From Pseudomonas phage sp. 30-2, in sequence record LC727697.1: a stretch of 64,000 nucleotides of DNA; one strand, 5' to 3'. The first letter of the stretch is position 1; each line of letters opens with the position of its first letter. Made by a program: the position numbers and the translations under genes. Under the pieces are notes generated by a model that worked only from the letters and a program-made list of their open reading frames with translations, was not told the DNA's origin and did no database searches. Below, one piece after another: positions 12,298 to 64,000 of the stretch.

Positions 12298-13482
12298 TTA
12301 TTCGTCGTAGTCGATGGTGATGCCAAACGGTGCAGTTACACCCTTGCGACCGTGGTTTATAAACACGGTATCGCAATAGTTAGGATCGCCGTAGTCATAC
12401 ACTTCCATGTCAGTGAAGAATACCAGCTGATGTGGCGGTTCGGTGAGCGTATCTTTAAGGAAGTTAAACACAGCCACAAAATCGGTACCGCCGCCGCCTT
12501 TGAGGGGATACTCATAGATTTCGTCTGCATTGTCGGGAGTATATTTTCGGAATTCATACACTCTAGTATCAAACGTTAGCACTTGTATGGAAAAGTCACT
12601 AAACTGTTCCATAATTCCTAACACTTCTCCTAAGAAATCCCTTAGCTGAGAAGAGCTAATCGAACCAGAGGCGTCTAGTGCCAAGATAACATCAATTTTG
12701 TCATCGACAATCTGACCCGGCAGAGTCGCACCAGTTCCCCAGCTCTTCCGCGACGGACGAGTCCACATATAGTCGGATTTAATGTGCGACGGAATAGTCT
12801 GGTTTAGCAATTCGCGCCAATCTAGTTTAGGTTCAGTGATGTCACTGATCATCTGACGCACACCTGCCGGAGTGTTGCCGACACCAGCAGCTTTAGCAGC
12901 CTGAAGAACAGCTTCAGTGATCTCGTCCCGAAGAGCAGCTTGCTCATCTGCAGACATAGGGATAGGACCGGATTTGCCAGTGCCGTCGCCGTCTTCATTC
13001 CCGGCACCACCCGGTTCGAGGTGAACGTCGAAGCTATCTTTATCTTTTAGTGACGGATCTTTCTTAATTAGTTCGTAGATCTGGTCAGCGGACATTCCGC
13101 GGTACTTTTCATCAAAGCACGGCTCGCACGTACCCGGACGGTGGATAAGCTTGCCGATCTTCATATCGTGCAATTCGAGGTTGATAACAAAGTCGGCAGC
13201 ACAGTTCCACAGTTTAGGCTCTCTGCTGCCGCGCCGCCCCATGTGGTCGTAGACGACGTGCATTACCTCATGACCGATGAGGAAGATAAGTTCCTTATCG
13301 TCCAAGTCTTCGAGGAACTTGGTATTATAATAAAGATGGCGTCCATCAGTACCGGCAGTAGGGCACCAGTCGTTCGCCTCGACTAGTTTAAGGCGCAGCG
13401 CCAAGGTCCCGAAAAACGGATGGTTCAACAGCAACTGAACACGGGCGCGGATGATGCGTTCTTCTAGGGTTTTAGTGGACAT
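12298..13482 (-). CDS. VWA-domain protein with N-terminal HExxH metallopeptidase-like domain (DUF2201-type MoxR partner; 'CobT-like')
   Basis: HEVMHVVYDH zinc motif and a VWA MIDAS motif DASGS (ILALDASGSISS), which is the family normally paired with MoxR ATPases. Conspicuously GC-rich. Confidence 0.8.
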   Translation of the reverse strand: MSTKTLEERIIRARVQLLLNHPFFGTLALRLKLVEANDWCPTAGTDGRHLYYNTKFLEDLDDKELIFLIGHEVMHVVYDHMGRRGSREPKLWNCAADFVINLELHDMKIGKLIHRPGTCEPCFDEKYRGMSADQIYELIKKDPSLKDKDSFDVHLEPGGAGNEDGDGTGKSGPIPMSADEQAALRDEITEAVLQAAKAAGVGNTPAGVRQMISDITEPKLDWRELLNQTIPSHIKSDYMWTRPSRKSWGTGATLPGQIVDDKIDVILALDASGSISSSQLRDFLGEVLGIMEQFSDFSIQVLTFDTRVYEFRKYTPDNADEIYEYPLKGGGGTDFVAVFNFLKDTLTEPPHQLVFFTDMEVYDYGDPNYCDTVFINHGRKGVTAPFGITIDYDE

Positions 13483-13537: not shown

Positions 13538-15046
13538 CTAGCGTACCTGCAATGTATATTTGTAATTGCCGCAATCGTAATATTTTAAATAACCTAAACT
13601 ATCCATTATTTCTGATTCGCTTAGATGTAAATTATTTTTATTAGAAATCTTAGATTTTATGAAATTAGATCTATGATATTTTATGTTGTCTTTTATATAC
13701 CAATAACCTGTATTTCTGTCATTCTTGGTTACATTTGTAAACCCGAGCTGTTTATATAAATTTCCATCTGACCAACACCTGTCTGCATATGTAATAATAG
13801 ATTTAGGGGAATATGTTTTTATGAAATATTTAAGAAGTTTGCTGGCTCCTCCTACAACAGTATTTTTGCTAGCATATCTAAGTAATTCATATTCCTCTTT
13901 TGTATATCTAGATTTCCCAAATGTCATTACGGCTACTAACAAATTCTCATTGTCGTATAGACCTAGTCTTACAGATGATTGACAAGAACCTTGGATGTGA
14001 GTTTCTTCTAAAAAAGTTAAAGATTCGTTAAATGTTATTTCTTTTATGGTTGTATTCCTTGCATATATTCTATCACTACAACCTAAAATAGATTTTAACC
14101 TTGATTTTATTATGTCTTGTTTTGATATCCAATCTACATCTAAAATTTGTATTAACTTTATTCCTTTATCTCTGCATTCTATAAATTTATCTACATGATA
14201 TGATTTTTTTCTGTGTTTTGTAGAATGCCAATAACAACCATTATATTCTATTGCTATGTTTGTACCTTTAATTACTATATCTAATTCTTTGTTAGATAAT
14301 ATAGATCGGTCATTGTTAATCACATCAAAACCTAGCGATACTATATAGTTAGATATTTCATTTTCGCCGGCAGACTTTGTTAAAGGATTACAAACATTGC
14401 ACCTCGGAGTAGACCCATAATCTACGTGTCCGATTACTATATTTCCGCATGCATTGCATACCCAGTCATACACATTTTTTCTAAAGCACCCTTCGTACTC
14501 GTCTATACTAAACGTAGGGGTGAGTATGTTAGAAAGTCGTTCTACTACTTTTTTATATCCCAATTCCTTTATAGTTCTATGATCTGGCTTTATATGTTTT
14601 TTACTTAATTGCTGTTTTGCAATAATATCTTTTGACTTAGATGGATTATCGACACCGTATTTTTCTATCCAAGTTTTTATCCTTTTTGTTTTCATACTTT
14701 CTTTTCCGGATTGTGTCATGCCTGGATGATTTTTTAAAGACCATTCCATATGGCATTTACATTTACTTTTATTTCCGCAAAATCCGTATTGGGTTTGTTT
14801 TGTATCTTTATTTCGCTTTAGTGTCCGTTTGTTATCATACTTACAGTAAACATTATCAGCCGGATTTAAGTATATATGAATCCTTTCTGTCACAGAAACG
14901 TCGTCACGAAGAAAGGAATTAGTTCGACGAACTAATTCCTCATATATTTCTTTTTTACTTTTTACTACATTTCCTAATGCGTTAGGATTTGTATTTTTTA
15001 TGAGTTCTTTTAATTCTATATCAAAGTTATCCATTATTCGTGCCAA
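13538..15046 (-). CDS. free-standing homing-endonuclease-like protein (Vsr/PD-(D/E)xK-like nuclease with Cys/His zinc-ribbon modules)
   Basis: IEYNGCYWHSTKH nuclease motif plus Cys-rich modules (CNACGN...H..C..C). Paralogous to ORF 30881..32569, which carries AIEYNGLYWHSSKH. Confidence 0.7.
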   Translation of the reverse strand: MARIMDNFDIELKELIKNTNPNALGNVVKSKKEIYEELVRRTNSFLRDDVSVTERIHIYLNPADNVYCKYDNKRTLKRNKDTKQTQYGFCGNKSKCKCHMEWSLKNHPGMTQSGKESMKTKRIKTWIEKYGVDNPSKSKDIIAKQQLSKKHIKPDHRTIKELGYKKVVERLSNILTPTFSIDEYEGCFRKNVYDWVCNACGNIVIGHVDYGSTPRCNVCNPLTKSAGENEISNYIVSLGFDVINNDRSILSNKELDIVIKGTNIAIEYNGCYWHSTKHRKKSYHVDKFIECRDKGIKLIQILDVDWISKQDIIKSRLKSILGCSDRIYARNTTIKEITFNESLTFLEETHIQGSCQSSVRLGLYDNENLLVAVMTFGKSRYTKEEYELLRYASKNTVVGGASKLLKYFIKTYSPKSIITYADRCWSDGNLYKQLGFTNVTKNDRNTGYWYIKDNIKYHRSNFIKSKISNKNNLHLSESEIMDSLGYLKYYDCGNYKYTLQVR

Positions 15047-16368: not shown

Positions 16369-17484
16369 TTAGTTCGAGTCGACAATAAACTTGCCGTACT
16401 CTTGGAAGAACTTAGTGAAGCAAGGGATCAACTTTCTGTTGATCGGCAGTTGGTATTCGCGCAACGCAGTACGCGCGCCGAGGATGACCATTTCTTGGGC
16501 AAAGTTGTTCATCATGTACTCGAAGAACAAGTTTACCGACTTGTGCCAATCCTCGGTAGTGTACTTTTTGTCGGCGTCAGCTACGTCAGCCAGCCACTCT
16601 TTTAGAGTGTAGCACATACTGACCACGAGCGAGTAACGAGCACTGATCTCTTCGACTTTGAGATCGGTTACCCGGCCGGTTAGCACATCTTCCGGCTTCG
16701 GAAGCTGCGAAGCATACTTCATGTGCTGCATGAAGGAGTAGCTGTGACTTTCGCCGACGGTTCCTGCGATAGTCGCACGTAGCAGGTGGTCCTTGTTGAT
16801 TCCTGCGAGCTGGAGGATGTCGGACACGAACTTCCAGGCTCGCGGAGTAGCAAACGCCTTGCTACGATCTTGGGGATCGAAGCAGAACAGGTTCTGCTTG
16901 TGCTGAGTGAGGTAGCCGACTACATCCGGGTGTACCGTGTTGTTAAGCGCCCACTGCTGCCAGTCCTCGAAGTTGGTTTCGATCTGCAAGTGAACGAAAC
17001 GGTTGGCCAACGGACTAGGCATACGATAAGTAACGCCCTTGTCGGTATCGCGGTTACCAGCAGCGACAATGTCGACGCCATCGGGCAGCTTATACGAACC
17101 GATGGCACGGTTCAGGATGAGCTGATATGCAGCGCCCTGCACGCTCGCCGGCGCCGAGTTCATTTCGTCCAGGAACAGGATGGCGTTGTCCAGGGTAGTT
17201 TCGCCGGGTTGCGGAAGATCGGACGGAATAGCCCAGCGCATGGTATTGGTTTTCGGATCGTAGTACGGAATGCCCTTAATATCAGTGGGATCCATGAGGA
17301 TCAGACGCATGTCGATGACCGGACGGTCAGCCTCGAAACCCAACTGGGCGATGATATCCGACTTGCCTACCCCCGGCGGACCCCAGAGGAACACAGGACG
17401 CTTCGCCTTGAACATGCCGCGGATAATTGCAGCACACTCCGTCGGACGAAGATACGTTTCTACGATGTTTTCTTTTTTAGCCAT
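16369..17484 (-). CDS. cobS: CobS/MoxR-family AAA+ ATPase
   Basis: Walker A GPPGVGKSD, Walker B ILFLDEMN and overall CobS-like architecture; GC-rich, which is why several spurious antisense ORFs are listed there. Confidence 0.85.
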   Translation of the reverse strand: MAKKENIVETYLRPTECAAIIRGMFKAKRPVFLWGPPGVGKSDIIAQLGFEADRPVIDMRLILMDPTDIKGIPYYDPKTNTMRWAIPSDLPQPGETTLDNAILFLDEMNSAPASVQGAAYQLILNRAIGSYKLPDGVDIVAAGNRDTDKGVTYRMPSPLANRFVHLQIETNFEDWQQWALNNTVHPDVVGYLTQHKQNLFCFDPQDRSKAFATPRAWKFVSDILQLAGINKDHLLRATIAGTVGESHSYSFMQHMKYASQLPKPEDVLTGRVTDLKVEEISARYSLVVSMCYTLKEWLADVADADKKYTTEDWHKSVNLFFEYMMNNFAQEMVILGARTALREYQLPINRKLIPCFTKFFQEYGKFIVDSN

Positions 17485-48444: not shown

Positions 48445-51400
48445 TTATAATCCTATGTAACCTTTTTGTAATTCTGTATTAGATCCATGAGCAGGATTAC
48501 AAACAACTGCTAATGGTATATTTGTACTGCCTGCAGGTTCGTTTATGTTGATTACAGACATGCCTGTTGCATTTACTTCTAAATTGCCCGTTATTGTTCC
48601 AGATACAATAGCTGATCTAGCATCAACTGTACTATGTCTAGTTGCAGCTATCATTATGCCTTCTGAGTTTTTAACTTCAAAATTAGCAGTAGATATACTT
48701 GTATCTAACGACAGGATTGTGCCGGATTTGATATTATTGAATATCACAAATACAAACGATTGACTAGTATCGTCGTTGTGTATTAGTTTACTTCCGTGTT
48801 TTAACACAATACCATCTTGTGCTTGGTTTGCAATATAAACGGATTGTCCGGCATTAAATGACAATATAGAACCGTCTGCACGGATTGCAGCGCTGGCTTG
48901 CCTGCATAGATTTCCTGCCAATACTACACTAGAACCCGGTATAGATTGTATTGCAGTTTCGTATCCATATACTGCAAAGTTTGCACCTAAACCAACATAC
49001 GCAGGTCCATCATATATACCTGTGGTATATGTTCTTCCTACAGTAAGTGCAGTTCCTAAACCAGTATCGTCTACTAACGCTATGTTATCTATGAAACCTA
49101 ACGAATATCCGCCAGCTACATACATGTTTGTATTTTTAAATACTGTAGTGAATTTAGATATAGTTCCGGTGTACCCAGTATAGTCAGATACATCTGCTAA
49201 TACACTATTAGGAATTACTATCTCTAAAGTATTAGATCCTGTGTTTATTGCTGTTACAATTTCAACACATTCTAACATAGTTGCTGCTGACGTAATCTTT
49301 ATAATGTCCCCTACTTCGTAGTCACTGACAGAAGAAAGTTGCATTGTTACCGTTGCCAATCCTGCATTATTGGTTATATTAGTAACAGTAAATGAACTAC
49401 TTGCTTGGGGCAATTCGCCTATAAGTTTTACATTCATCCCTTGAATGTGACTAAACGCAATAGGATTGGTAGGTTCGTAGACACCTTCTGCAACACGAAC
49501 TATAATTTCTGCAGAACTATTTACAAATTTGCCATCTAGACTAAGGAAAGCAGCATTTAATGTAGCAAATGGAGATTCTTCGGTTCCACTTCCTGTAGTG
49601 TCGTTACCATCTGTAGCTACATAAACTATTATATCCGAATCAGATGCAATATCAGTTTTTCTACCTAATTCACCTATGCCGTCTGTTACTTTCCAACCTA
49701 CTACCGAATCGACGTATGTAAATTCTATAGAAGCATTTTCGTTTGCAATTTCTAATATTTCGTTTTTACCCATTATTGGGTTGCCGTTGCCATCTACAAA
49801 GCAACTTGCTTTATCGTAAGTACCTAACAAGTCAGCTATTCTAACAACAGCGTTAACACTTGCTCCTGTCGGTAATTTAACAGTTACTGCACCATTGTTG
49901 GTATTAACATAAATTGCTTCGCCCGGTTGAGCTATTAGCATAGCAGGAGTGCTAGATGAATCTACAGTACGCCAATTCGTAACTGGAATGTTTTGTTTAG
50001 ATATCTCACCTATACCATCTGTTATTTTCCAACCGTACGTTGTGTCTACAAATGTTAACTCTATACTTGCATTTTGGTTCTGAATAGTTAGTGTGTTATC
50101 CATGCTGGCACCCATTAAAGGCATGCCATTAGTATTCACTACGCAACTATTTGTTCTAAATGTACCTTTCCAATCAGCAATACGAATTACCATATTTTCG
50201 GTAGGGGCAACAGGCAGAGTAATTGTTACACTAGCAGAAGTTGTATCTACCAATAAATATTCTGAACCAGTTACAGTATAGTTGCCATTTATCTTTGTCC
50301 ACGAAGTTACTACCGGCGATCCTGAACTATTTTTGTTTATCCAGCTATTTGTTACAGCATCATAAGTAAGAACTTGTCCGTCTTCTACTGAATTTAGATT
50401 TACGTCTACTAAACTTCCTAGTATTCCGTTAGTAGCAACCGGAGCTAGGTTATCTATGTCAGTTAGTGCATTTATGCTACTTACATATTCGAGTATAGGA
50501 TTAACATCGTCTATATCACTACCGGGCGGAATAGTAAACGCAGGATATTTTATAAATGTATTAGGCTGCGGATTTCCTGCGTCAGCTAACTTCCTAAAAT
50601 AATACGAATTATTTTCCGGTTTATTGGATAAATCGTTAAAATCACCACTTATAGCTACACTAGATAATCCTATTATATCAGAAACATTAATAGATGATTG
50701 ATATAAAACCTCATCACCGCTTGCATTCCATCGCAAGAATCCGTTAGGTAGTGCAGTATCTGCAGTGTCAGTTAGATCTAGTATAGATGTAGTAGATCCT
50801 GATGGCTTATTAGTTAAATCATTATAATCACCACTGAATGCAACTAACGCAAATGTAGGTAAATCTGTTAATTCAGAATACGTAACTGGTTCGTTTACCC
50901 ATGTAGTGCCGTTGTATTTTAAAACATCACTAGCAGCTAGATCAGATAGAGATACATCTGTTAGATCAGCTAGGGCTGTACTACCAGATGGGTTAGTTGC
51001 AGGTTCTTTTGCAATCCAATTATTTGAACTACTATCCCATGTTAATACATATCCGTTTGTAGGAACAGGATTAACGGTATTAACATCTGCTAAATCGTTA
51101 ATTGATGCCGGTATAGCAGGTTTATTAGATAAGTCATTATAATTTCCACTGGTAGCAACCGGAGCTAACCCAGTTATATCATTTGTACTTATTGTAGTAA
51201 TATACTGAACTGTGCTACCCGATGAATCCCACCGCAAGAATCCATTAGGTACAGCAGATGAACTAGTATCAGTTAATTGCAACAGACTCATACTTATAGT
51301 TCCAGTTAAGTCACTATAAGATAGTTGTTTATTCTGCCAAACAATACTATTGTCTGGCTGCACAGTTGCTCTAAGAACATTACCGTCAACTACAGGGAAA

Positions 51401-54400
51401 GTAAGAGTAACATCAGTTAAGTCATTTAATGCTACTACCGTGGATCCGCCCGAACCTGCTATATTACGTAAATTGTAATTTATCCAACGTTGATTTTGAC
51501 GATCCCATATTAAACCCCAAACAGCTTGTGTAGCTGGATTGTTCATATCAGGTAAATTTACATTTACATTTATTAAATCGTGCAAATCTCCTGTGGTTGC
51601 TACTTCTGCTAATCCGGCAATTACGCTTGCAGAAATACTATCTTCGTATATAATTAGATTTCCGGTAGTATCCCAACGTAAGTATGCATTAGCCCTATCT
51701 TCCGGCAATGTTATATTTTGGGTATCGCTTAAACCTATAAAAGAAGAACTAGTGTTCGGTCGTGCTTGCCATATTCCGTTAGAATATGTTAACACATCCT
51801 CTGGTTGTGCTAAATAATTTCCATTAGTATCACGCATACGAACGTCAGCAAGTCCGTTTAGTTCAGTTACTAATGTGGGTTTATTAGTTAAGTCATTATA
51901 ATTTCCACTAGTAGCAACTGTAGCTAATTGAGAGGGTTTAACTACCGTTTCAAACGATAGTTGGCCAGCTCCATTTGTAACTACTGCTTGCCCAACTGTA
52001 CCGTCGGTCATTGGATAACTTATATTACCTAATGATATGCCAGTAGATGAATCTAATTTTATTCTAGAAGTAGAAGAAATAAGAGCATCTACGTTATTAG
52101 CAACTGGATTTAGAATAATTGAGCTATTTGTATTTCCTAACTCGAATATTATATTTCCAGTAGTAGGTCCTGCTGTTAGAACAATGCTATCTAAAATATC
52201 GTTAGTAGAAACTTTTGTATTTCCGCTCTCTATGTAGGCTTGTATTTGATTAGGATTATAAGGTACAGGTACCCATGCAGAACCATTCCATTGCAATACT
52301 TCATTCTGGTTCAAACCTATTAAATCTACATCACTCAGTGAAGATAGTTTACCTATAGTCGCAACAGTAGCTAATCCAGAAACAGATTGTGCATCGATTG
52401 TATTTGCATATATTACCTGATTTGCACTGGAATTCCAACGCAATATACCATCTGCAACTGGTGTATTATTTGTATCATTTAACCCAAGTAAACTAAAACT
52501 GCCATTAGTAGGTATGGATGGTTTATTGTTTAGATCATCATAGCTGCCTGTAGTTGCAACATTAGCAAACGACGGTTTATTAGATAAATCATCATAACTT
52601 CCGCTAGTAGCAACAGTAGCTAATCCACTTATTTGAGAAACGTTATGGACATGAACTGTCGGTGTAAATTGCGTAGGAATACCCAACAAATCCGAATATT
52701 GTCCTGTTGTAGCTACATCTGACAGATCAGTTTTATTAGCATACACACTTAAATCGGGTGCATTTATTAAATCTGAATATTCTCCAGTTGTAGCTATGTC
52801 AGCTAATGATACAGATAAAACATAGTCAGATAAATCCGGTGTTCCTTGCAAATCTGCATACTGGCCAGATGATGCGACAGGAGCCAATCCAGTTATTGCA
52901 TTTACAGGAATTGTTTGAATATATTCAACACTACTTCCAGATGCATTCCAGCGTAAGAATCCGTTTGCAACAGGTACAGAATTAGTATCTGATAATCCCA
53001 CTAATGAATATGAACTATTAGTAGGTGCGTTAGTTAAATCATTATAATCACCACTAAATGCATCAGAGGTATTTAATTTATTATCTAGGGATGCCTGTAA
53101 TCCGGATACGTCTGCTATATTGTGGGTATGTTCGGCTGGATTAAATTCAGCAGGAATATTTATTAAATCAGTATAACTACCTGATGAAGAAACTGTAGCT
53201 AATAACGGTTTGCCTAATAAATCCGAATATTGTCCGGTTGTAGACACAACAGACAATCCTGCTACATCTGTTGCAGGAATGTTTGCTGACGATACAACAA
53301 ATGAACCGTCTAAGTTCCATTTTAAATAGCCGCCGGGCTGAACAGTGGGACTTACATCATTCAAACCTATAAATTTAAAATCAAAATTAGTAGGAATAAA
53401 CGGTTTATTTGTTAAACTATCATAATCGCCGTCAAACGCAGGCGGCGCATCAATTAAGTCGCTATAACTCCCGGTTATAGCAACAGTCGATAAGGAAGGG
53501 GTACCCAATAAATCCGAATACTGACCTGATATAGCAACGTCCGACAATCCTGAAATATCTTGCGGATATATATAATCTTGATATGCAACTAAGGTACCTA
53601 AATTATTCCACCGTAAGAATCCATTAGGTACAGCAGGACTAAATGTATCTTGAAGATCTATTAACCCCGGCTTATTTGTTAAACTATTATAATCGCCGTC
53701 GAATGCAATATTTGCGTCAAGTTTGCTGTCTAGTAAACTTTGCAGGCCTAGTACGTCTACTACGTCGTGTGTATGCGCAGCGGGGCTAAAAACGCTTGGT
53801 TTATTGCTTATATTAGCCCAATCTATGCTTGCTTGTGTTATTGCACTAGCAACCCATGCTGTTCCGTTCCAGGTTAATACGTTCCCTGTTTGTTTAGAAG
53901 AAACATCTACATCTAATAAGTCGTTTAAATTTTCTACTAACTCGGGTTTATTTATTAAATCAGAATATCTGCCAGTTGTAGCAACAGTAGATAATTCTGA
54001 ATCAGTAACATAGTTATCTAAGTTAGGAGTACCGGAAATATCAGTATAAGATAATTGCTTGTTTATCCATGAAGTGCCGTTAAAATAAATAACATCTTTT
54101 GGAAGTCTAGTAGTTAAATTGACAGTCAATTTACTATCTAGCGAATTTTGCAATCCTATAATATCAGATATAGCATGCGTATGTGCGGTTGGCGCCATTG
54201 CAGTCGGTTTATTAACTAAATCGTTATAATCGTTGCTAGTAGCTACAGATGCCAATCCTGTGATTTGTGCAGCCGGGTGAGTATGCGCACTTGGTGCAAA
54301 TGTCAAAGGCACATTGTTCAAATCAGAATAATTACCGGTGGTTGCAACAGTGGAAAATTCAGTTCTAAGCGGATACACTGACAAATTAGGTTTTCCTAAT

Positions 54401-55155
54401 AAGTCATTATAATTTCCACTAGTAGCAACTGGAGCTAACCCGGTTATTACAGTAGCAGAAATTGAAGTAATAAATTCTACCTCATCGCCACTTGCGTTCC
54501 AGCGCAAGAATCCGTTGGGTAGTGCAGTATCGTTAACATCTGTTAATCCAACTATAGTATTAGAAGTTGCACTGGGAATATTTACTAAATCATTATAATC
54601 ACCACTGAATGCAACTGATGACAATTCGCTAGATCTAACTACATCACTCAAATCTGGTTTGTTTGTTAGTGATGTATAATCTATTTTCTTATTTGTCCAA
54701 GAACCTGATTCCCATGCTAATACATCATCAGCTGTAGGGGAGATAACAGAGACATCTGATACATCATTTAACGTTATATTACTATTAACCCATGCAGAAC
54801 CGTCCCATTTAAGATATTGGGTTATAGTAGGAGATACTATATTTGTGTCTAGTAATTCATCTAGACTAGGTAATTGGCCACCGCTGCCAGGTACTGGTAA
54901 AAATGCCATTCCGCCCGCGGAAGTTATAGTTAGTACGTATCCAGGCACTTTATTACCAGATATTGCAAGTTTATCAATTGTTATAGAACCGTCTAATATA
55001 TTAGACGAATCTAATACGATTCTGGGATTTGTGCTATTTACAAATGCCTGGACAGTATCGTCATAAACTAAAAATTGACCATTAGTTGGTGTACTATCTA
55101 TTAGAAAATCTGGAACAAATTGATTTAATACAGAAGGACCTGATTGTATACTCAT
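48445..55155 (-). CDS. giant repeat-rich fibre/host-recognition protein (2236 aa)
   Basis: Dozens of degenerate (A/V)(A/T)(S/T)G.Y.DL.NKP and AHTH...I.GL repeat units. It is unbroken in one frame, while all antisense ORFs are short. Confidence 0.8.
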   Translation of the reverse strand: MSIQSGPSVLNQFVPDFLIDSTPTNGQFLVYDDTVQAFVNSTNPRIVLDSSNILDGSITIDKLAISGNKVPGYVLTITSAGGMAFLPVPGSGGQLPSLDELLDTNIVSPTITQYLKWDGSAWVNSNITLNDVSDVSVISPTADDVLAWESGSWTNKKIDYTSLTNKPDLSDVVRSSELSSVAFSGDYNDLVNIPSATSNTIVGLTDVNDTALPNGFLRWNASGDEVEFITSISATVITGLAPVATSGNYNDLLGKPNLSVYPLRTEFSTVATTGNYSDLNNVPLTFAPSAHTHPAAQITGLASVATSNDYNDLVNKPTAMAPTAHTHAISDIIGLQNSLDSKLTVNLTTRLPKDVIYFNGTSWINKQLSYTDISGTPNLDNYVTDSELSTVATTGRYSDLINKPELVENLNDLLDVDVSSKQTGNVLTWNGTAWVASAITQASIDWANISNKPSVFSPAAHTHDVVDVLGLQSLLDSKLDANIAFDGDYNSLTNKPGLIDLQDTFSPAVPNGFLRWNNLGTLVAYQDYIYPQDISGLSDVAISGQYSDLLGTPSLSTVAITGSYSDLIDAPPAFDGDYDSLTNKPFIPTNFDFKFIGLNDVSPTVQPGGYLKWNLDGSFVVSSANIPATDVAGLSVVSTTGQYSDLLGKPLLATVSSSGSYTDLINIPAEFNPAEHTHNIADVSGLQASLDNKLNTSDAFSGDYNDLTNAPTNSSYSLVGLSDTNSVPVANGFLRWNASGSSVEYIQTIPVNAITGLAPVASSGQYADLQGTPDLSDYVLSVSLADIATTGEYSDLINAPDLSVYANKTDLSDVATTGQYSDLLGIPTQFTPTVHVHNVSQISGLATVATSGSYDDLSNKPSFANVATTGSYDDLNNKPSIPTNGSFSLLGLNDTNNTPVADGILRWNSSANQVIYANTIDAQSVSGLATVATIGKLSSLSDVDLIGLNQNEVLQWNGSAWVPVPYNPNQIQAYIESGNTKVSTNDILDSIVLTAGPTTGNIIFELGNTNSSIILNPVANNVDALISSTSRIKLDSSTGISLGNISYPMTDGTVGQAVVTNGAGQLSFETVVKPSQLATVATSGNYNDLTNKPTLVTELNGLADVRMRDTNGNYLAQPEDVLTYSNGIWQARPNTSSSFIGLSDTQNITLPEDRANAYLRWDTTGNLIIYEDSISASVIAGLAEVATTGDLHDLINVNVNLPDMNNPATQAVWGLIWDRQNQRWINYNLRNIAGSGGSTVVALNDLTDVTLTFPVVDGNVLRATVQPDNSIVWQNKQLSYSDLTGTISMSLLQLTDTSSSAVPNGFLRWDSSGSTVQYITTISTNDITGLAPVATSGNYNDLSNKPAIPASINDLADVNTVNPVPTNGYVLTWDSSSNNWIAKEPATNPSGSTALADLTDVSLSDLAASDVLKYNGTTWVNEPVTYSELTDLPTFALVAFSGDYNDLTNKPSGSTTSILDLTDTADTALPNGFLRWNASGDEVLYQSSINVSDIIGLSSVAISGDFNDLSNKPENNSYYFRKLADAGNPQPNTFIKYPAFTIPPGSDIDDVNPILEYVSSINALTDIDNLAPVATNGILGSLVDVNLNSVEDGQVLTYDAVTNSWINKNSSGSPVVTSWTKINGNYTVTGSEYLLVDTTSASVTITLPVAPTENMVIRIADWKGTFRTNSCVVNTNGMPLMGASMDNTLTIQNQNASIELTFVDTTYGWKITDGIGEISKQNIPVTNWRTVDSSSTPAMLIAQPGEAIYVNTNNGAVTVKLPTGASVNAVVRIADLLGTYDKASCFVDGNGNPIMGKNEILEIANENASIEFTYVDSVVGWKVTDGIGELGRKTDIASDSDIIVYVATDGNDTTGSGTEESPFATLNAAFLSLDGKFVNSSAEIIVRVAEGVYEPTNPIAFSHIQGMNVKLIGELPQASSSFTVTNITNNAGLATVTMQLSSVSDYEVGDIIKITSAATMLECVEIVTAINTGSNTLEIVIPNSVLADVSDYTGYTGTISKFTTVFKNTNMYVAGGYSLGFIDNIALVDDTGLGTALTVGRTYTTGIYDGPAYVGLGANFAVYGYETAIQSIPGSSVVLAGNLCRQASAAIRADGSILSFNAGQSVYIANQAQDGIVLKHGSKLIHNDDTSQSFVFVIFNNIKSGTILSLDTSISTANFEVKNSEGIMIAATRHSTVDARSAIVSGTITGNLEVNATGMSVININEPAGSTNIPLAVVCNPAHGSNTELQKGYIGL

Positions 55156-55168
55156 ATTCTTTTTAACC

Positions 55169-55603
55169 CTACATTGCTAACAGCACTTTATCTACACTAC
55201 CCATATCTTCGTTTGTTACAAGCACAGGCGGCGGTATATATCCTTCCCACGATACAACTGCTCTTAGATAAGTAAAATTACCTATAAAAGTAAATGCCTT
55301 TGTACCAGTATCGCCATTTTTCTCGCCTGTGGGATGCGCCGGATCTTCGGGGAAACGTAAAACAGTGGTTCTTCTATTTCGTTCAGTTACATCTATATTA
55401 AACCAATCCGACTCTTCTGGATTCATAGATAGAGTTCCTTGAAGCATAAAGTATCCTTTAAAATTATAATAAGACATAGATACTGTATGAATTCCGTCAG
55501 TAAAACCGAAAAAGTTGTCAGCCCTAACTCTTTCACCTACTATTTTCATTTCTCCGTCAAAACTTGCACCTTGCAGCATTAATACAGATTTTCTAATACT
55601 CAT
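55169..55603 (-). CDS. structural hypothetical protein
   Basis: 144 aa, co-transcribed with the giant fibre gene. Confidence 0.55.
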   Translation of the reverse strand: MSIRKSVLMLQGASFDGEMKIVGERVRADNFFGFTDGIHTVSMSYYNFKGYFMLQGTLSMNPEESDWFNIDVTERNRRTTVLRFPEDPAHPTGEKNGDTGTKAFTFIGNFTYLRAVVSWEGYIPPPVLVTNEDMGSVDKVLLAM

Positions 55604-55621
55604 TTTGACCTCTATTATTAT

Positions 55622-55633
55622 GCAGTATTTATC
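55622..55633 (-). promoter_or_regulatory. T4-late-promoter-like motif (GATAAATACTGC)
   Basis: The reverse complement of GCAGTATTTATC reads GATAAATACTGC, matching the T4 late consensus TATAAATACT with one mismatch. It lies about 20 nt upstream of the structural operon start. Confidence 0.4.
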
Positions 55634-55680
55634 AGTGTACGTAATTGTATTGAATTAGTACGTTACTGAAACTTGTTGTC

Positions 55681-55710
55681 AAAAAAATAGCCCCGTTTGG
55701 GGCTATTTTT
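55681..55710. terminator. palindromic rho-independent terminator
   Basis: AAAAAAATAGCCCCGTTTGGGGCTATTTTT. Confidence 0.65.
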
Positions 55711-55720
55711 AGGAGTAGTG

Positions 55721-57940
55721 TTAAACTACAGTTTGGTCTATTTTCTTTTTAGCTTTAGTAGCAGGGGCAATTGCTTGTATAACTACAACTTCGTCTGCTA
55801 CTACCCTGACTTCTGCGTGACCGCCATTTTTAAGATCGCCAAGTAGCATCAGCTTTGACAGCGGCAACTTGACTTTCTCTTGGAACAGCCTCGCGAGCGG
55901 CCGGGCTCCCATCTTAGGATCATATCCATCTGTTGCTAATTTTTGACGTGCTTCTTGGGTAAGGATCAACGATACGCCTTTTTCTAGTACACTTGCTTGC
56001 ACTTTAGCAAACTCAGTGTCTACAATCTTAGACATTTCGTTAATAGTGAGCGCAGAGAACTTAACAATGCCGTCGAGCCTGTTCCGGAATTCAGGCGCAA
56101 ATCCTTTTGTAACTGCGCTATCTATTGCACCGTCGTTAAAATTATTTCCAAATCCAATTGATGCTTTAGCAGCTTGAGCAGCGCCGGAGTTAGATGTCAT
56201 TAGTAGCAAAACGTTACCAAAGAATACAGTTTTGCCAGTTGACGAAGTTAGCCGGGCGTCATCCATCACCTGAAGGAACGTACTAAATACCTTCGGGTGT
56301 GCTTTTTCGATTTCGTCTAGCAACAAGATGCAGTTGGGATTTTTTTCAATCTCAGAGATTAACTGCCCTGCGCCAGCTTCACCTTCGCCGTGCCCTACAT
56401 ATCCGGGCGGCGCGCCCAGCAATCGGGCGACGCTATGCTGTTCTTGGTATTCAGACATATCGAACCGCACTAAAGGAATACCCATATGTTGGGATAGTTT
56501 TTTTGCCAAGAACGTTTTGCCAGTACCGGTCGGACCCACTAATAAGAAGTTACCAATCGGCTTATTGGCATCTCGAAGTCCTGCTTTGTGTACCATTACT
56601 GCTTCGCAGAGCTTGTTAATAGCTTCGTCTTGCCCGAACACATCGTGTTTGAGATTACCTTCTAGACGAGCAATGGTGTCGTTTTCGGTGTTATCCAACA
56701 TTTCCGGACGCATATGAGCTAATTTAGCTACAGTTTCTATGACCATACGCTCGGTAATAGTAGAGATCCCTGCTAATTTAGCTCTGGCGCCGACCAGGTC
56801 TATTGCATCGATTGATTTGTCGGGCTGGTGCCGAGTTTTGATGTATCGTTCGGTCAAATCGACTGCTAGATCTAGAGTCCCTACGTCGTATTTGACGCCA
56901 TGGAACTCTTCGTAATATTGCTTTAATCCGGCAACTATTTTTTTAGTGTCACCTACACTAGGCGGCGGAACATCCACTTTTTGGAACCGGCGCATTAACG
57001 CCCGATCTTTTTCGAAGTGTGTACTATATTCGTCGTAGGTAGTTGCGCCTATGCAACGAAGTGTTCCTTTTGCTAATTCTGGCTTGAGCAGGTTAGCAGC
57101 GTCTACCGACGAGCCATTACTTGCACCAGCGCCCATGATCATATGTATTTCGTCGATGAAGACGATGGCATTTTTCATTGCTTTTAGTTCGTCTAGTAGC
57201 GCTTTCATGCGCTCTTCGAACTCGCCGCGATATTTAGTGCCTGCCATCATCGCGCCGATATCGAGTGAAATAACTTGTTTGTCAGAAATTGCTTCGGGCA
57301 CCTCACCATTGACGATTTTCATCGCCAACCCTTCGGCAATTGCTGTCTTACCCACACCTTCTTTGCCGGTAAGAATGCAATTGTTTTTTCGCCGGCGGGC
57401 AAGGGCTTCGATAACTTCTTCTAGTTCAGTTTCCCGGCCGATAACCGGATCGATTTTGCCCTCAGATACTTCGTCGTTAAGATTGCGAGTAAACGACTTT
57501 ATAAGGGATTCTGCTTCTGCAGATTTCTTCGCTTCAGTTACTACAGCAGTAGTAACACCGTAGTGCGCGAGAAGCTGGCTTGCATTGCAACTGGTGTCTT
57601 TGATGAGTGCATCGAGCATATCGACATACGTCATTGCTTTGTTAGGATCTAATGCAATTTTAGTTGCCAATTGCTGGCACCAGCGACTAAGAGAGGGACT
57701 GATATCAATATTCATATCAGTTATGTGTCGGGATTTTCCCAATTGGGTAACAAGGAAATCAGATACTGCTTTAGTTAATTGATCCGGGTCTGCATTGCAG
57801 TTTTTAACACAGTCCTTTACTTCGTCGTATCCTAATAAAACATATAATACATGATCTGAAGTAATGGCTTCGTGTTGGTGACTTACTGCAAGTTTTTTGG
57901 CTTCAGTAAGTACAGTATTCAGTTTCTTTTGGCTATCCAT
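55721..57940 (-). CDS. clpA: ClpA-like double-AAA+ unfoldase
   Basis: Clp_N domain and two Walker A sites (GKEGVGKTAIA; GPTGTGKTFLAKKL). The IGF ClpP-docking tripeptide is present (SIGFGNNF). GC-rich. Confidence 0.85.
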   Translation of the reverse strand: MDSQKKLNTVLTEAKKLAVSHQHEAITSDHVLYVLLGYDEVKDCVKNCNADPDQLTKAVSDFLVTQLGKSRHITDMNIDISPSLSRWCQQLATKIALDPNKAMTYVDMLDALIKDTSCNASQLLAHYGVTTAVVTEAKKSAEAESLIKSFTRNLNDEVSEGKIDPVIGRETELEEVIEALARRRKNNCILTGKEGVGKTAIAEGLAMKIVNGEVPEAISDKQVISLDIGAMMAGTKYRGEFEERMKALLDELKAMKNAIVFIDEIHMIMGAGASNGSSVDAANLLKPELAKGTLRCIGATTYDEYSTHFEKDRALMRRFQKVDVPPPSVGDTKKIVAGLKQYYEEFHGVKYDVGTLDLAVDLTERYIKTRHQPDKSIDAIDLVGARAKLAGISTITERMVIETVAKLAHMRPEMLDNTENDTIARLEGNLKHDVFGQDEAINKLCEAVMVHKAGLRDANKPIGNFLLVGPTGTGKTFLAKKLSQHMGIPLVRFDMSEYQEQHSVARLLGAPPGYVGHGEGEAGAGQLISEIEKNPNCILLLDEIEKAHPKVFSTFLQVMDDARLTSSTGKTVFFGNVLLLMTSNSGAAQAAKASIGFGNNFNDGAIDSAVTKGFAPEFRNRLDGIVKFSALTINEMSKIVDTEFAKVQASVLEKGVSLILTQEARQKLATDGYDPKMGARPLARLFQEKVKLPLSKLMLLGDLKNGGHAEVRVVADEVVVIQAIAPATKAKKKIDQTVV

Positions 57941-57949
57941 GTGTACCCC

Positions 57950-58639
57950 TTACGAGATTGTGTATGGTTTTGCTTTGTACGTTAGTAGTATACTAGTATC
58001 GCTACTTTTAGTCAAACGAACTTTTGTGAACATGTTGACAGTTATATACAAATGACCTGTTATGGTTTCTAAAATATTGTTTACTGTATATGTATTCTTA
58101 ATACCTTTGTTCTTCACTAGTATTTTAGATCCAGATACAAATGATGTAGGTATACCTACTTTTATCTTATTTCCGTACGGATGCTCAACTATTATTTCTG
58201 TGCCCATAATTATGTCGAGACTTTCTACAGAAATAGTTGCATATACATCTATGCCATTTTGAGCTATAGAAAATGTATCATGTATGAATATTACGGTAAC
58301 TAATAATATAGAATTGTTTACTATTATTATTTTTTGTGAATTATGAGGGAAATGTGGCGGAATTTCTATAATAAATTTATGATTAGCTGTCTTGAATTTG
58401 CCGCCTTTATTTTGGTATTTTAATGGAATATATACTGTATCTGTGTATTGTTCTGTTTTAATAGAAATCCATTTTATTGCATATTCGTATGCTTCCCTTA
58501 CTTGTTTAAACATGTTTTCTGCATCTTTATCTTTATTTCTGTCAGGATGATATTTTGATGCAAGTTTTCTGTATGCAGTCTTTATCTGTTTTTCTGTGGG
58601 ATTAGCAGATACGCCAAGGATTGTTTGCCAATTCTTCAT
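57950..58639 (-). CDS. J-domain (DnaJ-like) protein
   Basis: N-terminal J domain [31 protein letters not shown] with the HPD motif. Confidence 0.75.
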
Positions 58640-58677
58640 GATAGTTAAAGCACTTATCGAAAATAAGTGCTTTTTGA

Positions 58678-59379
58678 TTATAATTTGGCTATAATAGGTT
58701 GCTTAGATTGGTGTTGAAGTATTATATATTCGTTTAGTTTATATACTTCCCATTTTTTACCTAAAAATGCCGATAATAAAGCAACATTACTATCTACATT
58801 AGATAGTTCTATAGCACATTCATTTAGTTTTAAACTATTAAATGCTTTTTCGCCTATATACAATGGCTCAAAACTTACTGTTCTATGAGAATTAGATATG
58901 TATATTCTAGAATCATCTATGTGAGCAGAAGATATATCACTGTCAGTAAGCATAGATATTACACTTTCTGTTATTGATGCTTCTTCGTCATCTAGTAATA
59001 TTATATAATCTAATAGTCTTTCGTCATCGTATGGTAGTAATTCGTTACAAAGATATGCTTTAACTAACCAGTCTTGCTTTCCAGACACATTTTCTACATC
59101 TTTTATAATCTTGTAAAATTTTTCAAAGAAGCCTGCTTTTCTTTTTAATTCTACAAATACTAAATAATTTCCGTTTTCGTCGGGATTGGGACTTACATCG
59201 ACATCTAATACTTCTATAAAACTTTTTTCTATAAAATCGTCTAAATCAAACGCAGGGTCTTCGTCAATGGTATAGAATGCAATGACTATAACTTCTTCCT
59301 GTGTTCCAGATTTAGGCATATACTCATCCACCGAAATTATAGGTAATACAGTTCCTTTCAATGAGTGTCTAGCTAACAT
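58678..59379 (-). CDS. hypothetical acidic protein
   Basis: 233-aa ORF. Confidence 0.5.
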
Positions 59380-59408
59380 TATATACCCCTTTATAATATG
59401 GAATAATT

Positions 59409-59942
59409 TTATAGATTTCCATCTACATCGTTTATTCCGTTTTCGCCTGCTGCTTCTACATCAGCTATTGCACTAGGATCTATATCATCTACGTTAGAGA
59501 AATCCTGCATGCCATCTATTATTGCTTCGTCTATAAATTTCCTAGGCATAGTTATTGTCACTAACCAAATAGGCAATTCTTCTATTTTTGCTTGCTTAGT
59601 AGCTGGGTTTTCGTAGTCAGGTCTACCTGTTACTTTTTTTGGTTCTAAAAAAACATCCCTTTCGTACTTTACTTTGCAACCGTATTTTAGTAAACGCAAT
59701 CCTGCATCGGGATCTGGCATATCTTTTTCATTGTACATCCAGGTAGTAGTAACCCAATATCTAGAAATAAAGGGTCCGGCAACTAATTCTCCTTTATTCC
59801 AATTTGCATAAGAAAAAACATTACAGTTATCTAATGTTTTTTCTAATTCTATGAGCATATCTAATACTTTATTATTTCCTGCTATTTGAACTAAATTCTC
59901 TCTAGCAGTATCTGCATTGTGTTTGTTCATTTTACTATCCAA
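59409..59942 (-). CDS. hypothetical protein
   Basis: 177-aa ORF; a divergent promoter region follows. Confidence 0.5.
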   Translation of the reverse strand: MDSKMNKHNADTARENLVQIAGNNKVLDMLIELEKTLDNCNVFSYANWNKGELVAGPFISRYWVTTTWMYNEKDMPDPDAGLRLLKYGCKVKYERDVFLEPKKVTGRPDYENPATKQAKIEELPIWLVTITMPRKFIDEAIIDGMQDFSNVDDIDPSAIADVEAAGENGINDVDGNL

Positions 59943-60106
59943 ATAATATATTATATTTATCTACACATTAATCTTAATATTTAAAATTAGATGTAGATTT
60001 TTCTTAAGTCTTAATGTATAATAACACACATAAATAACAATGTAAAGATTAGATCTTTATACATATTATCACACTAAAAATAAGATTTTAACCAGGAGTC
60101 ATACTT

Positions 60107-62855: not shown

Positions 62856-63182
62856 TTAATTATAAACTCGTGTTTCTACTATTATATTGTCTTCTGGCTC
62901 TTCATCGGATATCAATAAAATAGAATCTATTTCAGCACAGTAATATACATTTTGCTCTGTAGTGTGTACTGGACGGGACCAGCGACCGTGCTTAATTAAC
63001 ACCCATTGGCCTACAACAAATGTATCTTTTTGATCTTCTCTTATATGGGATACTTGTGCCCACCGAGCGCGGATGCCGTGTGACTTACCGTTATCATCTG
63101 TAAAAATAATACCGCCTACAGTGCGTTCGCCTTTTTTAAAATTAGTTACAATAATGTTGTTATGAAGTGGTATTATATTCAT
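62856..63182 (-). CDS. groES: GroES/gp31-like co-chaperonin
   Basis: MNIIPLHNNIIVTNFKKGERTVGGIIFT closely parallels E. coli GroES [28 protein letters not shown]. Confidence 0.7.
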   Translation of the reverse strand: MNIIPLHNNIIVTNFKKGERTVGGIIFTDDNGKSHGIRARWAQVSHIREDQKDTFVVGQWVLIKHGRWSRPVHTTEQNVYYCAEIDSILLISDEEPEDNIIVETRVYN

Positions 63183-63537: not shown

Positions 63538-64000
63538 TTATTTTAGAAATTCTTTTATATCTAAATTATATTTTAGTGAATCTACTTTATGCACGCCTAT
63601 TAAAAATAATACATAAGACGCAACACTAGACCCGCGACCCACACCCCAGATAAGGCAATTTTCCCTCATATATGATACAAAATATATCATAAATCTTAGC
63701 ATATTGTATAAACCGCGTTCTTGAAAGAGTTTCAGTTCCATTAATACTCTTTCTTTTTGTGCATCAGTGTCACATAAATTTAATATAAAAGAATCTATAT
63801 CTATATTTTTAAATTCCGGTGGCATAAACCATTCTGAAGACATTTTTTCATGAAATTCATCAACAGAACAAGTTAAGTGTTTCGTCGTATTAAGTTTATG
63901 CAACCCTAACACTTGTTCTACGTGCATATTATACTTGTTTATGTCTTCGTTGTCAACAAAGAGTGGATCTCCCAGCTGGTTCCCTTGCAAAAGGATATTT
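63538..64000 (-). CDS. partial CDS (5' end outside window) whose C-terminus resembles the DnaE/PolC fingers GxGRGS region
   Basis: No in-frame stop up to the window edge, so the annotated TTG start is probably artificial. ...ERVLMELKLFQERGLYNMLRFMIYFVSYMRENCLIWGVGRGSSVASYVLFLIGVHKVDSLKYNLDIKEFLK aligns with E. coli DnaE [28 protein letters not shown]...[35 protein letters not shown]. Confidence 0.4.
   Translation of the reverse strand, partial: NILLQGNQLGDPLFVDNEDINKYNMHVEQVLGLHKLNTTKHLTCSVDEFHEKMSSEWFMPPEFKNIDIDSFILNLCDTDAQKERVLMELKLFQERGLYNMLRFMIYFVSYMRENCLIWGVGRGSSVASYVLFLIGVHKVDSLKYNLDIKEFLK

Follow-up and report, generated by a model that had tools for sequence, protein, structure and literature searches.

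A J-domain gene joined to clpA in PA5oct-like jumbo phages of Pseudomonas aeruginosa, and its possible place beside a phage-encoded Clp protease

The present work concerns two adjacent genes, one encoding a ClpA-type AAA+ unfoldase and the other a J-domain co-chaperone, at positions 55721-58639 of a 64,000-nucleotide stretch of Pseudomonas phage sp. 30-2 (record LC727697.1; this whole stretch is called the window below). An arrangement of J-ClpA, or of J, a peptide deformylase (PDF) and ClpA, on one strand was found at 72 of 75 informative viral loci, and the PA5oct genome encodes its own ClpP, ClpS and ClpX. On balance, the two genes probably serve a phage-autonomous ClpAP(S) protease, co-expressed with a J co-chaperone that would recruit the DnaK of the host. 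The individual genes are not new: clpA, the J gene and a nearby GroES-like gene are already annotated in GenBank as gp298, gp297 and gp290 ('chaperonin') of phage PA5oct. What is new is the conserved, virus-specific J-(PDF)-ClpA operon, which is a modest comparative result.

Positions 55000-60000 of the window are 98.3-98.9% identical to ten Wroclawvirus jumbo phages that infect P. aeruginosa (the PA5oct/MIJ3/Paride group, with genomes of about 287 kb), and at this level of identity the window is that of a PA5oct-like jumbo phage. Window position w corresponds to position 251563 - w of the PA5oct record MK797984. The features discussed are collected in Table 1.

Conservation of the J-ClpA pairing

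Linkage was scanned with a J-domain hidden Markov model at the best 80 IMG/VR loci and in the isolates; ten uninformative loci and four bacterial-type clpS-clpA loci stand outside the 75 that were counted. At 37 viral loci the J gene abuts clpA, with a gap of -17 to +74 nt, and at 35 a slot of about 450-920 nt, mostly 455-550 nt, lies between the two genes, filled in 33 of these by an open reading frame (ORF) of 150-170 amino acids. Six of the slot ORFs were printed: four are peptide deformylases with the GxGxAANQ, EGCLS and HExDH motifs, one lacks GxGxAANQ only, and one (locus L062) lacks all three. A PDF gene intervenes in about half of the viral loci, for example L014, L030, L048, L054, L059 and L086, and the direct and PDF-containing forms are both scattered across the ClpA tree. 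In Atu_ph07 the DnaJ gene lies directly upstream of ClpA, and in Phosso the order is DnaJ, peptide deformylase, ClpA; in three metagenomic relatives with ClpAs 52-54% identical to that of the window, a gene with DnaJ and DnaJ_C domains abuts or overlaps clpA within the same PhoH/gp295/gp296 block. A J gene was not found at three informative loci, namely 121Q, SCTP-2 and L045.

In bacteria, clpA canonically shares its operon with clpS, and J-domain proteins are seen as devoted to Hsp70. In 80 cellular genomes, selected for the ClpAs most similar to that of the phage, clpS is found directly ahead of clpA at no fewer than 56 loci, and a J gene lies within 2.5 kb of clpA at 2, as opposed to the 72 of 75 in viruses. 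The remark in an earlier note on this DNA that a ClpA/J pairing is unusual is thus well founded. The spacing from J to ClpA is fixed at zero or one gene, whereas the outer spacings vary by kilobases; gp295, gp296 and gp299 are also syntenic across the relatives, at distances from the cassette that vary by kilobases. On these counts the pairing of J with ClpA is not accidental. Pairwise distances among the J proteins and among the ClpAs correlate (r = 0.85, Mantel p <= 0.001).

Many matches labelled as phage have bacterial gene context or look like cellular fragments, and those in the locus analysis were set aside as bacterial-type. The suspect records are Acinetobacter phage MD-2021a, Listeria phage LM 4-x, fragments named 'Bacteriophage sp.' and three IMG/VR clpS-clpA contigs. 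Of these, the one inspected, Acinetobacter phage MD-2021a, was confirmed as a bacterial chromosomal contig, with clpS-clpA among argC, aroF and rpiA. Phage-labelled records that are short fragments or that carry matches of the ClpB, ClpV or clpS-clpA type, the contigs of Listeria phage LM 4-11-1 and 4-14-1 among them, inflate the counts of phage ClpA and ClpP.

A neighbour-joining tree of 164 sequences, which is unrooted, built by a distance method and limited on the bacterial side to Proteobacteria-like sequences, separates 80 viral from 84 bacterial-type ClpAs with a bootstrap of 100/100. The best cellular ClpAs are those of Alpha- and Gammaproteobacteria, Pseudomonas included, with 42-45% identity; identity is 49-54% to uncultured viral relatives and 41-43% to isolated jumbo phages. 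Recent capture of clpA from the host or another bacterium was rejected on the low cellular identity and the separate viral group, and the search for a donor lineage that the earlier note had recommended yielded no recent donor. Both of the basal viral branches include loci with the J linkage, and the J-less phages therefore look like secondary losses.

The phage ClpA

The earlier note described a full-length ClpA with both AAA+ modules, and this description held. The ORF comprises an N-domain (residues ~1-140), D1 (~165-420), D2 (~430-625) and D2-small (631-711), with Pfam matches to Clp_N, AAA, AAA_lid_9, AAA_2 and ClpB_D2-small, and its product is 100% identical to PA5oct gp298 (QCG76179). 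The best NCBIfam model is TIGR02639 (ClpA), matched end to end with 791.5 bits, below its equivalog cutoff of 993.15, and PHROG 4871 ('ATP-dependent protease') is matched with 810 bits. Since the TIGR02639 score falls below the curated cutoff, the protein is filed, as far as family models go, as a member of a viral ClpA-like subfamily (PHROG 4871) and not as a bacterial ClpA equivalog. The RefSeq re-annotation NC_071039.1 names ClpP a 'head maturation protease' and gives ClpA the label 'porphyrin biosynthesis'. The latter was clearly carried over by mistake from a generic AAA+ PHROG, because phrog_249 matches the D2 P-loop region only.

Both Walker sets are intact, as are the pore loops, the arginine fingers and the sensor-2 motif (Table 1). 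The HMMER alignment to E. coli ClpA (1ksf) is contiguous across residues 160-736 and sets the phage 'kaSIGFgnn' onto 'rkSIGLihq', the ClpP-docking loop of the E. coli protein. The IGF tripeptide that the earlier note had singled out is thus in its proper place. All 126 aligned relatives keep a hydrophobic tripeptide here, as IG followed by F, L, M, Y, V or I (or as VGF, PGF or FGV), and the catalytic motifs are likewise kept in every one of the 126. That clpA is a degraded copy or a fragment was rejected, every motif being intact and the match to ClpA models running end to end; the absent IGF, decayed gene or broken Walker motif that the earlier note had named as grounds for doubt were looked for, and none was found. 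A ClpB-like disaggregase was also rejected, as the protein has the IGF loop and no M-domain: ClpA models match it in one contiguous stretch, whereas the ClpB, ClpC and ClpV models split in two.

The phage protein thus shares with E. coli ClpA (PDB 1ksf/6w1z) the order Clp_N, D1, D2 and D2-small without an M-domain, the ATPase, pore-loop and arginine-finger motifs, and an IGL/IGF tripeptide at the homologous position. It differs from the bacterial proteins in its low identity to any cellular ClpA sampled, in its place within a separate viral group, in a J gene instead of clpS upstream, and in a linker between the N-domain and D1 that is about 22 residues shorter than in E. coli. The N-domain is barely alignable with that of E. 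coli (12 bits over residues 11-130), and Pfam matches one Clp_N repeat, with 30.4 bits against a cutoff of 20.7. This domain diverges fast, with 15-24% identity to the relatives, compared to 47-60% in the AAA+ core.

In a wider frame, the window ClpA is a member of the jumbo-phage ClpA family (PHROG 4871; Atu_ph07 gp292, the 'ClpA-like' protein of RaK2/121Q, moraphage VOG02072), within which the 121Q/RaK2 branch and SCTP-2, unlike the window, lack a J gene. ClpA is conserved in RaK2-like phages, with DnaJ listed as the next gene, and ClpX, ClpP, ClpS, ClpA and ClpB are listed for Atu_ph07 (Attai et al. 2018). For jumbo phages, ClpA, ClpX, ClpP, ClpS, DnaJ and Hsp10 have been listed (Iyer et al. 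2021), and in the moraphages ClpA is a near-core gene. In these three studies J-(PDF)-ClpA is neither described as a conserved operon nor functionally tested.

Some metagenomic relatives of the protein (P0050, P0052, P0054, P0106 and possibly L014) are 1076-1129 amino acids long and have Pfam matches to Hom_end/LAGLIDADG, which suggests inteins within viral clpA genes.

The J-domain protein

The earlier note placed the J gene after clpA. The two genes are indeed adjacent, but on the coding (minus) strand the J gene lies upstream, followed by clpA. The canonical J domain with an HPD motif, also reported there, was confirmed: Pfam gives DnaJ 62.9 bits and DnaJ_C 30.3 bits, the latter above its threshold, and the codons around the motif read YHPDR. 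The protein consists of the J domain (residues 1-67), a degenerate linker and C-terminal domain (CTD) I (68-120), and a DnaJ-type CTD beta-sandwich (123-205). In the AlphaFold model, the J domain has a predicted local distance difference test score (pLDDT) of 86-97 and the beta-sandwich is confident, while residues 64-120 have low pLDDT and the CTD-I region is shorter than in the relatives. Foldseek matches of the model are to Thermus DnaJ and to the CTDs of CbpA-like, Sis1 and Hdj1 proteins.

The HPD motif is kept in 68 of 69 J orthologues, the lone exception being a truncated ORF, and the CxxCxG motifs of a zinc finger occur in none of the 69. Judged by these motifs and by the model, the protein is most like a class-B Hsp40, with a canonical J domain. 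The class B (type II) Hsp40s (Thermus thermophilus DnaJ, CbpA of E. coli and Klebsiella, yeast Sis1, human DNAJB1) are its best structural matches and share the HPD-bearing J domain, the CTD beta-sandwich and the lack of CxxCxGxG motifs. It departs from them in having no glycine/phenylalanine-rich (G/F) linker and a degenerate CTD-I, both of which most viral relatives keep (mean G+F content of the linker 27%).

The first phage J-domain protein to be characterised was Rki of the T4-related phage RB43, the product of the ORFan gene 057w, which according to the abstract of that study stabilises sigma-32 (Perrody et al. 2012, PMC3486835). Both are phage-encoded J domains that must act via host DnaK; as far as that abstract describes Rki, the PA5oct protein is set apart by a DnaJ-type client-binding CTD and by its operonic position with ClpA.

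Another point of comparison is the ClpB-DnaK-DnaJ disaggregase, in which an Hsp100 is likewise linked, genetically and functionally, to Hsp70/Hsp40. To our knowledge, this is the only well-established precedent for cooperation between a J protein and an Hsp100. In ClpB, however, an M-domain binds DnaK and a ClpP-docking loop is lacking, whereas the phage ClpA shows the reverse.

Other proteostasis genes of the phage

A cluster of proteostasis genes lies beyond the end of the window in the PA5oct genome (Table 1). It contains genes for ClpX (gp255), Hsp20 (gp259), ClpS (gp260), a Bax1-I/YccA-like membrane protein (gp265), FtsH (gp266), ClpP (gp272) and ribosomal protein S21. Outside the cluster, PA5oct encodes oligopeptidase A (gp188) and a 'polyubiquitin-like' protein (gp281). 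Pfam confirms the proteostasis genes of the cluster and oligopeptidase A, although the Bax1-I match of gp265 does not reach the gathering score.

The ClpP gp272 matches Pfam CLP_protease with 202 bits and, when compared with solved ClpP structures, has S (acSMG), H (mIHr) and D (kfDtflsa) at the triad positions; it is 100% conserved in all ten relatives and has been detected by mass spectrometry. A clpS-like adaptor, which the earlier note had advised looking for, was found in gp260: it matches Pfam ClpS with 77 bits and, in an alignment to an E. coli ClpS sequence, keeps the N-degron-pocket residues N34, D35, T38, M40 and H66 and the ClpA-contact residues E79, E82 and K84, with D36 replaced by N. 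Among isolated jumbo phages, matches to full-length ClpA and to ClpP fall into the same groups, i.e. the PA5oct-like phages, Atu_ph07, Phosso and SCTP-2, and ClpA and ClpP counts match for the Escherichia, Klebsiella, Erwinia and Salmonella phage groups.

No significant tblastn match to DnaK, GrpE, GroEL or PDF was obtained in the PA5oct genome. The GroES/gp31-like gene reported by the earlier note is present, with a weak match: its Pfam Cpn10 score is 21.6 bits against a cutoff of 21.1, and it falls far below the cutoffs of the NCBIfam GroES models. PHROG 931 ('head morphogenesis') is matched with an E value of 3.8e-7 and PHROG 3188 (GroES) with 1.3e-5, so that the putative assignment is weak though consistent across libraries. 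The gene occupies the same relative position in loci L007, L008, L050 and L045. Like T4 gp31, it would encode a small phage Cpn10-like protein in a genome without GroEL, and such a protein must use the GroEL of the host, there being none from the phage; the likeness to gp31 and GroES is limited by the weakness of the match.

By its predicted gene content, the phage brings a full Clp system, but from the Hsp70 and chaperonin systems it has only the co-chaperones. Host partners would be borrowed on the Hsp70/chaperonin side, because the phage has no DnaK or GroEL. On the Clp side, host machinery is not needed. The suggestion of the earlier note that the phage rewires host proteolysis and chaperone networks is supported in part.

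Proposed function and alternative explanations

The proposed function starts from a two-gene cassette, J then ClpA, of an apparently old, phage-specific ClpA lineage. ClpA would form a hexamer whose IGF loops engage ClpP, preferably the phage gp272, 12.6 kb away, and the phage ClpS gp260 is a possible N-degron adaptor of the resulting ClpAP. A ClpP-linked role for ClpA is favoured because loss of the docking loop would be expected were ClpP irrelevant, yet every aligned relative keeps it. The J protein would recruit host DnaK through its HPD motif, since there is no phage Hsp70 for it to work with, and its C-terminal beta-sandwich would bind client proteins. Together, J and ClpA may form a triage module in infection, whereby clients are either refolded by DnaK or unfolded and degraded by ClpAP. 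The cassette belongs to a wider phage proteostasis set, with ClpX, FtsH, Hsp20, the GroES-like protein, a MoxR-VWA pair and oligopeptidase A. These physical interactions, as well as the substrates and the timing of the cassette, are proposed on the strength of gene content and conserved motifs.

Several points weigh against the phage-autonomous protease. The ClpA scores below the equivalog cutoff, and its N-domain is so divergent that binding of phage or host ClpS is uncertain. The ClpP gp272 carries the RefSeq name of a head maturation protease and was seen in a virion mass-spectrometry preparation, and may have another role. The lists of the best 80 IMG/VR contigs for ClpA and for ClpP share no contig, an outcome put down to the truncation of the lists and the short flanks. 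General collinearity of the phage lineage accounts for part of the J-ClpA linkage, and the idea that the J CTD and the ClpA N-domain have specifically co-evolved was dropped, as the partial Mantel test was positive for all domain pairs. The order of two virion-protein genes, J-clpA and a giant fibre gene suits a role in assembly equally well. The main text of the PA5oct, MIJ3 and Paride papers does not mention Clp or DnaJ, and the literature that was searched contains neither a J-(PDF)-ClpA operon nor a tested phage ClpA.

The earlier note had proposed, as an example, that the phage redirects host ClpP. On this model the phage ClpA would dock onto host ClpP1/ClpP2 and turn host proteolysis to substrates chosen by the phage. 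The intact and conserved IGF loop would permit this, mixed complexes are physically plausible in terms of general ClpAP/ClpXP knowledge (the docking pockets of ClpP being broadly conserved), and the divergent N-domain suggests a new substrate or adaptor specificity. A host partner is nevertheless unnecessary, because the phage encodes its own canonical ClpP, ClpS and ClpX, besides FtsH, and ClpA is found alongside ClpP in the same isolates of jumbo phages; redirection of host ClpP is thus considered unlikely. A somewhat stronger, if still minor, contender is that the main task of J (with host DnaK) and ClpA is to fold or unfold proteins for virion morphogenesis, for instance the adjacent 2236-residue fibre, with ClpP dispensable or merely clearing failed intermediates. 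The cassette lies downstream of two 'virion structural protein' genes and upstream of the structural gp299 and the fibre gp300, in a conserved order, a GroES/gp31-like gene is nearby, and it has been suggested that ClpA/ClpX may 'aid in virion assembly' (Iyer et al.). On the other hand, a strong terminator separates clpA from gp299/gp300, the spacing from ClpA to its structural neighbours varies by kilobases, and neither ClpA nor J was detected in virions. ClpB and Hsp104 lack the ClpP-docking tripeptide, and its universal presence here is unexpected for a pure chaperone.

Two further explanations bear on the pairing itself. The J protein, standing in the operon position of clpS, might bind the viral ClpA N-domain and deliver to ClpA its clients or DnaK-bound clients, which implies a hand-off from Hsp40/Hsp70 to an Hsp100 without a ClpB-type M-domain. 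The replacement of clpS by J directly upstream of clpA (clpS at ≥56 of 80 bacterial loci, J at 72 of 75 viral ones) and the tight or overlapping junctions are in keeping with such an adaptor, as is the fast evolution of both the J C-terminal region and the ClpA N-domain, whose distances correlate (r = 0.85). The partial Mantel signal is, however, equal for all domain pairs, with none specific to one pair, and thus reflects a lineage effect; roughly half of the loci have a PDF gene separating J from ClpA, the phage still carries ClpS, and we know of no J protein that binds ClpA. A direct J-ClpA adaptor is accordingly among the most doubtful of the explanations. It is also improbable that J and ClpA are mere neighbours in a collinear core region, acting independently, even though gp295, gp296, gp299, PhoH, the clamp loader and the GroES-like gene are syntenic as well and ClpA persists with no J gene in SCTP-2 and the phages of the 121Q/RaK2 type: the J-ClpA link is far tighter (0-1 intervening gene, compared to variable inserts of 0.04-4.3 kb), is seen in the two basal viral branches of the ClpA tree, and involves overlapping or abutting ORFs that suggest co-translation.

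The preferred phage-autonomous ClpAP(S) protease can also be combined with some of these elements. J would have taken the slot of ClpS and would couple host DnaK to phage ClpAP, and a proteolysis suite of ClpAPS, ClpXP, FtsH and oligopeptidase A would enable Paride and other Wroclawvirus phages to multiply in starved, deep-dormant P. aeruginosa by freeing amino acids from the host proteome. This combined explanation is highly speculative. Paride, of the same genus, is the one phage for which replication on deep-dormant P. aeruginosa has been demonstrated, and the Clp and J genes are candidates for this therapeutically relevant trait.

That a large, old viral clade keeps J, often with PDF, joined to ClpA points to an undescribed functional link from Hsp70/Hsp40 to a ClpP-docking unfoldase. 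The 'host-like' genes of jumbo phages also deserve to be reread, in that near-complete ATP-dependent proteolysis is imported by this phage while the other systems are represented by co-chaperone halves only. If the module is an ordinary quality-control accessory, the value of the present work lies mainly in better annotation.

Operon anatomy and neighbouring genes

The stop codon of J (TAA) overlaps the AAGGGG ribosome-binding site that precedes the ATG of clpA, a junction which suggests co-transcription and possibly coupled translation. The terminator directly 3' of clpA has a folding energy of -18.7 kcal/mol (z = -7.5); it was missed by a consensus terminator scan, found by reading the sequence and confirmed by folding. 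The hairpin upstream of J (-12.9 kcal/mol, z = -4.7) has no clear U-tract on the coding strand, and there is no clear Shine-Dalgarno sequence between it and the ATG of J; possible roles for it are attenuation, processing or stabilisation.

The gp295- and gp296-like genes are found upstream of the cassette in 50-52 of the 61 loci having at least 3 kb of upstream sequence. They are probably in the same transcription unit as J-clpA, starting at the divergent PhoH/gp295 intergenic region. The best promoter-like sites lie in this spacer, the nearest large intergenic region upstream, although the promoter scan, taken overall, did not exceed chance. Just downstream of the cassette, gp300 (48445-55155, minus strand) encodes a 2236-residue virion protein with many copies of a motif of about 30-40 amino acids (…VATSGNYNDLxNKP…), typical of long fibre proteins.

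Table 1. Positions of the cassette, its motifs and the associated features (window coordinates unless another record is given)
Feature	Position	Strand	Description
clpA	55721..57940	-	739 amino acids; ClpA-type double-ring AAA+ unfoldase, orthologue of PA5oct gp298
ClpA N-domain (Clp_N)	57521..57940	-	Pfam Clp_N, 30.4 bits
D1 Walker A	57344..57367	-	GKEGVGKT, intact
D1 pore loop	57227-57235	-	KYR, intact
D1 Walker B	57143-57166	-	IVFIDEIH, intact
D1 RR finger	56981-56992	-	intact
D2 Walker A	56513..56536	-	GPTGTGKT, intact
D2 pore loop	56393-56404	-	GYVG, intact
D2 Walker B	56303-56329	-	ILLLDEIEK, intact
IGF tripeptide	56150..56158	-	predicted ClpP-docking loop; residues 595-597, codons read S-IGF-G
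D2 R finger	56072-56089	-	FRNRLD, intact
D2 sensor-2	55898-55909	-	GARP, intact
Intrinsic terminator	55681..55710	-	directly 3' of clpA; 12-bp stem, AAAC loop, U-run
J-clpA junction	57941..57949	-	9-nt spacer
J-domain co-chaperone	57950..58639	-	229 amino acids; orthologue of PA5oct gp297
HPD motif	58541..58549	-	residues 31-33, codons read Y-HPD-R
Hairpin upstream of J	58647..58673	-	12 bp; ends 7 nt before the J start codon
gp296-like gene	58678-59379	-	PHROG 'virion structural protein' family
gp295-like gene	59409-59942	-	PHROG 'virion structural protein' family; mass-spectrometry flag on gp295
GroES/T4 gp31-like co-chaperonin (candidate)	62856..63182	-	108 amino acids; orthologue of PA5oct gp290
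Proteostasis cluster	PA5oct MK797984 169742-181020 (L095 22742-34020)		6.5-18 kb beyond window position 64000

Composition

The description of clpA as GC-rich in the earlier note is correct relative to the phage, with 44.9% GC compared to 34.1% for the window, and does not extend beyond that comparison. The GC content at third codon positions (GC3) is 0.415 in ClpA (rank 8) and 0.451 in ClpP (rank 7) among 121 long ORFs with a median of 0.219; it is ordinary in J, ClpS, ClpX, FtsH and the capsid protein. Across 71 relatives, the difference in GC3 between ClpA and J averages only 0.04, and the larger values include two isolates from GC-rich hosts, Atu_ph07 and Phosso.

The two other GC-rich islands of the window lie at 16369-17484, with a gene for a MoxR-type AAA+ ATPase (GC3 0.68), and at 12298-13482, with one for a DUF2201 metallopeptidase with VWA (GC3 0.53), both on the minus strand. 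MoxR, its VWA partner, ClpA and ClpP all rank among the top eight GC3 outliers of the genome. The two islands represent the MoxR-vWA chaperone pair known from group 2.2 jumbo phages (Iyer et al.). A homing-endonuclease-like ORF (13538-15046) lies between the MoxR and DUF2201/VWA genes.

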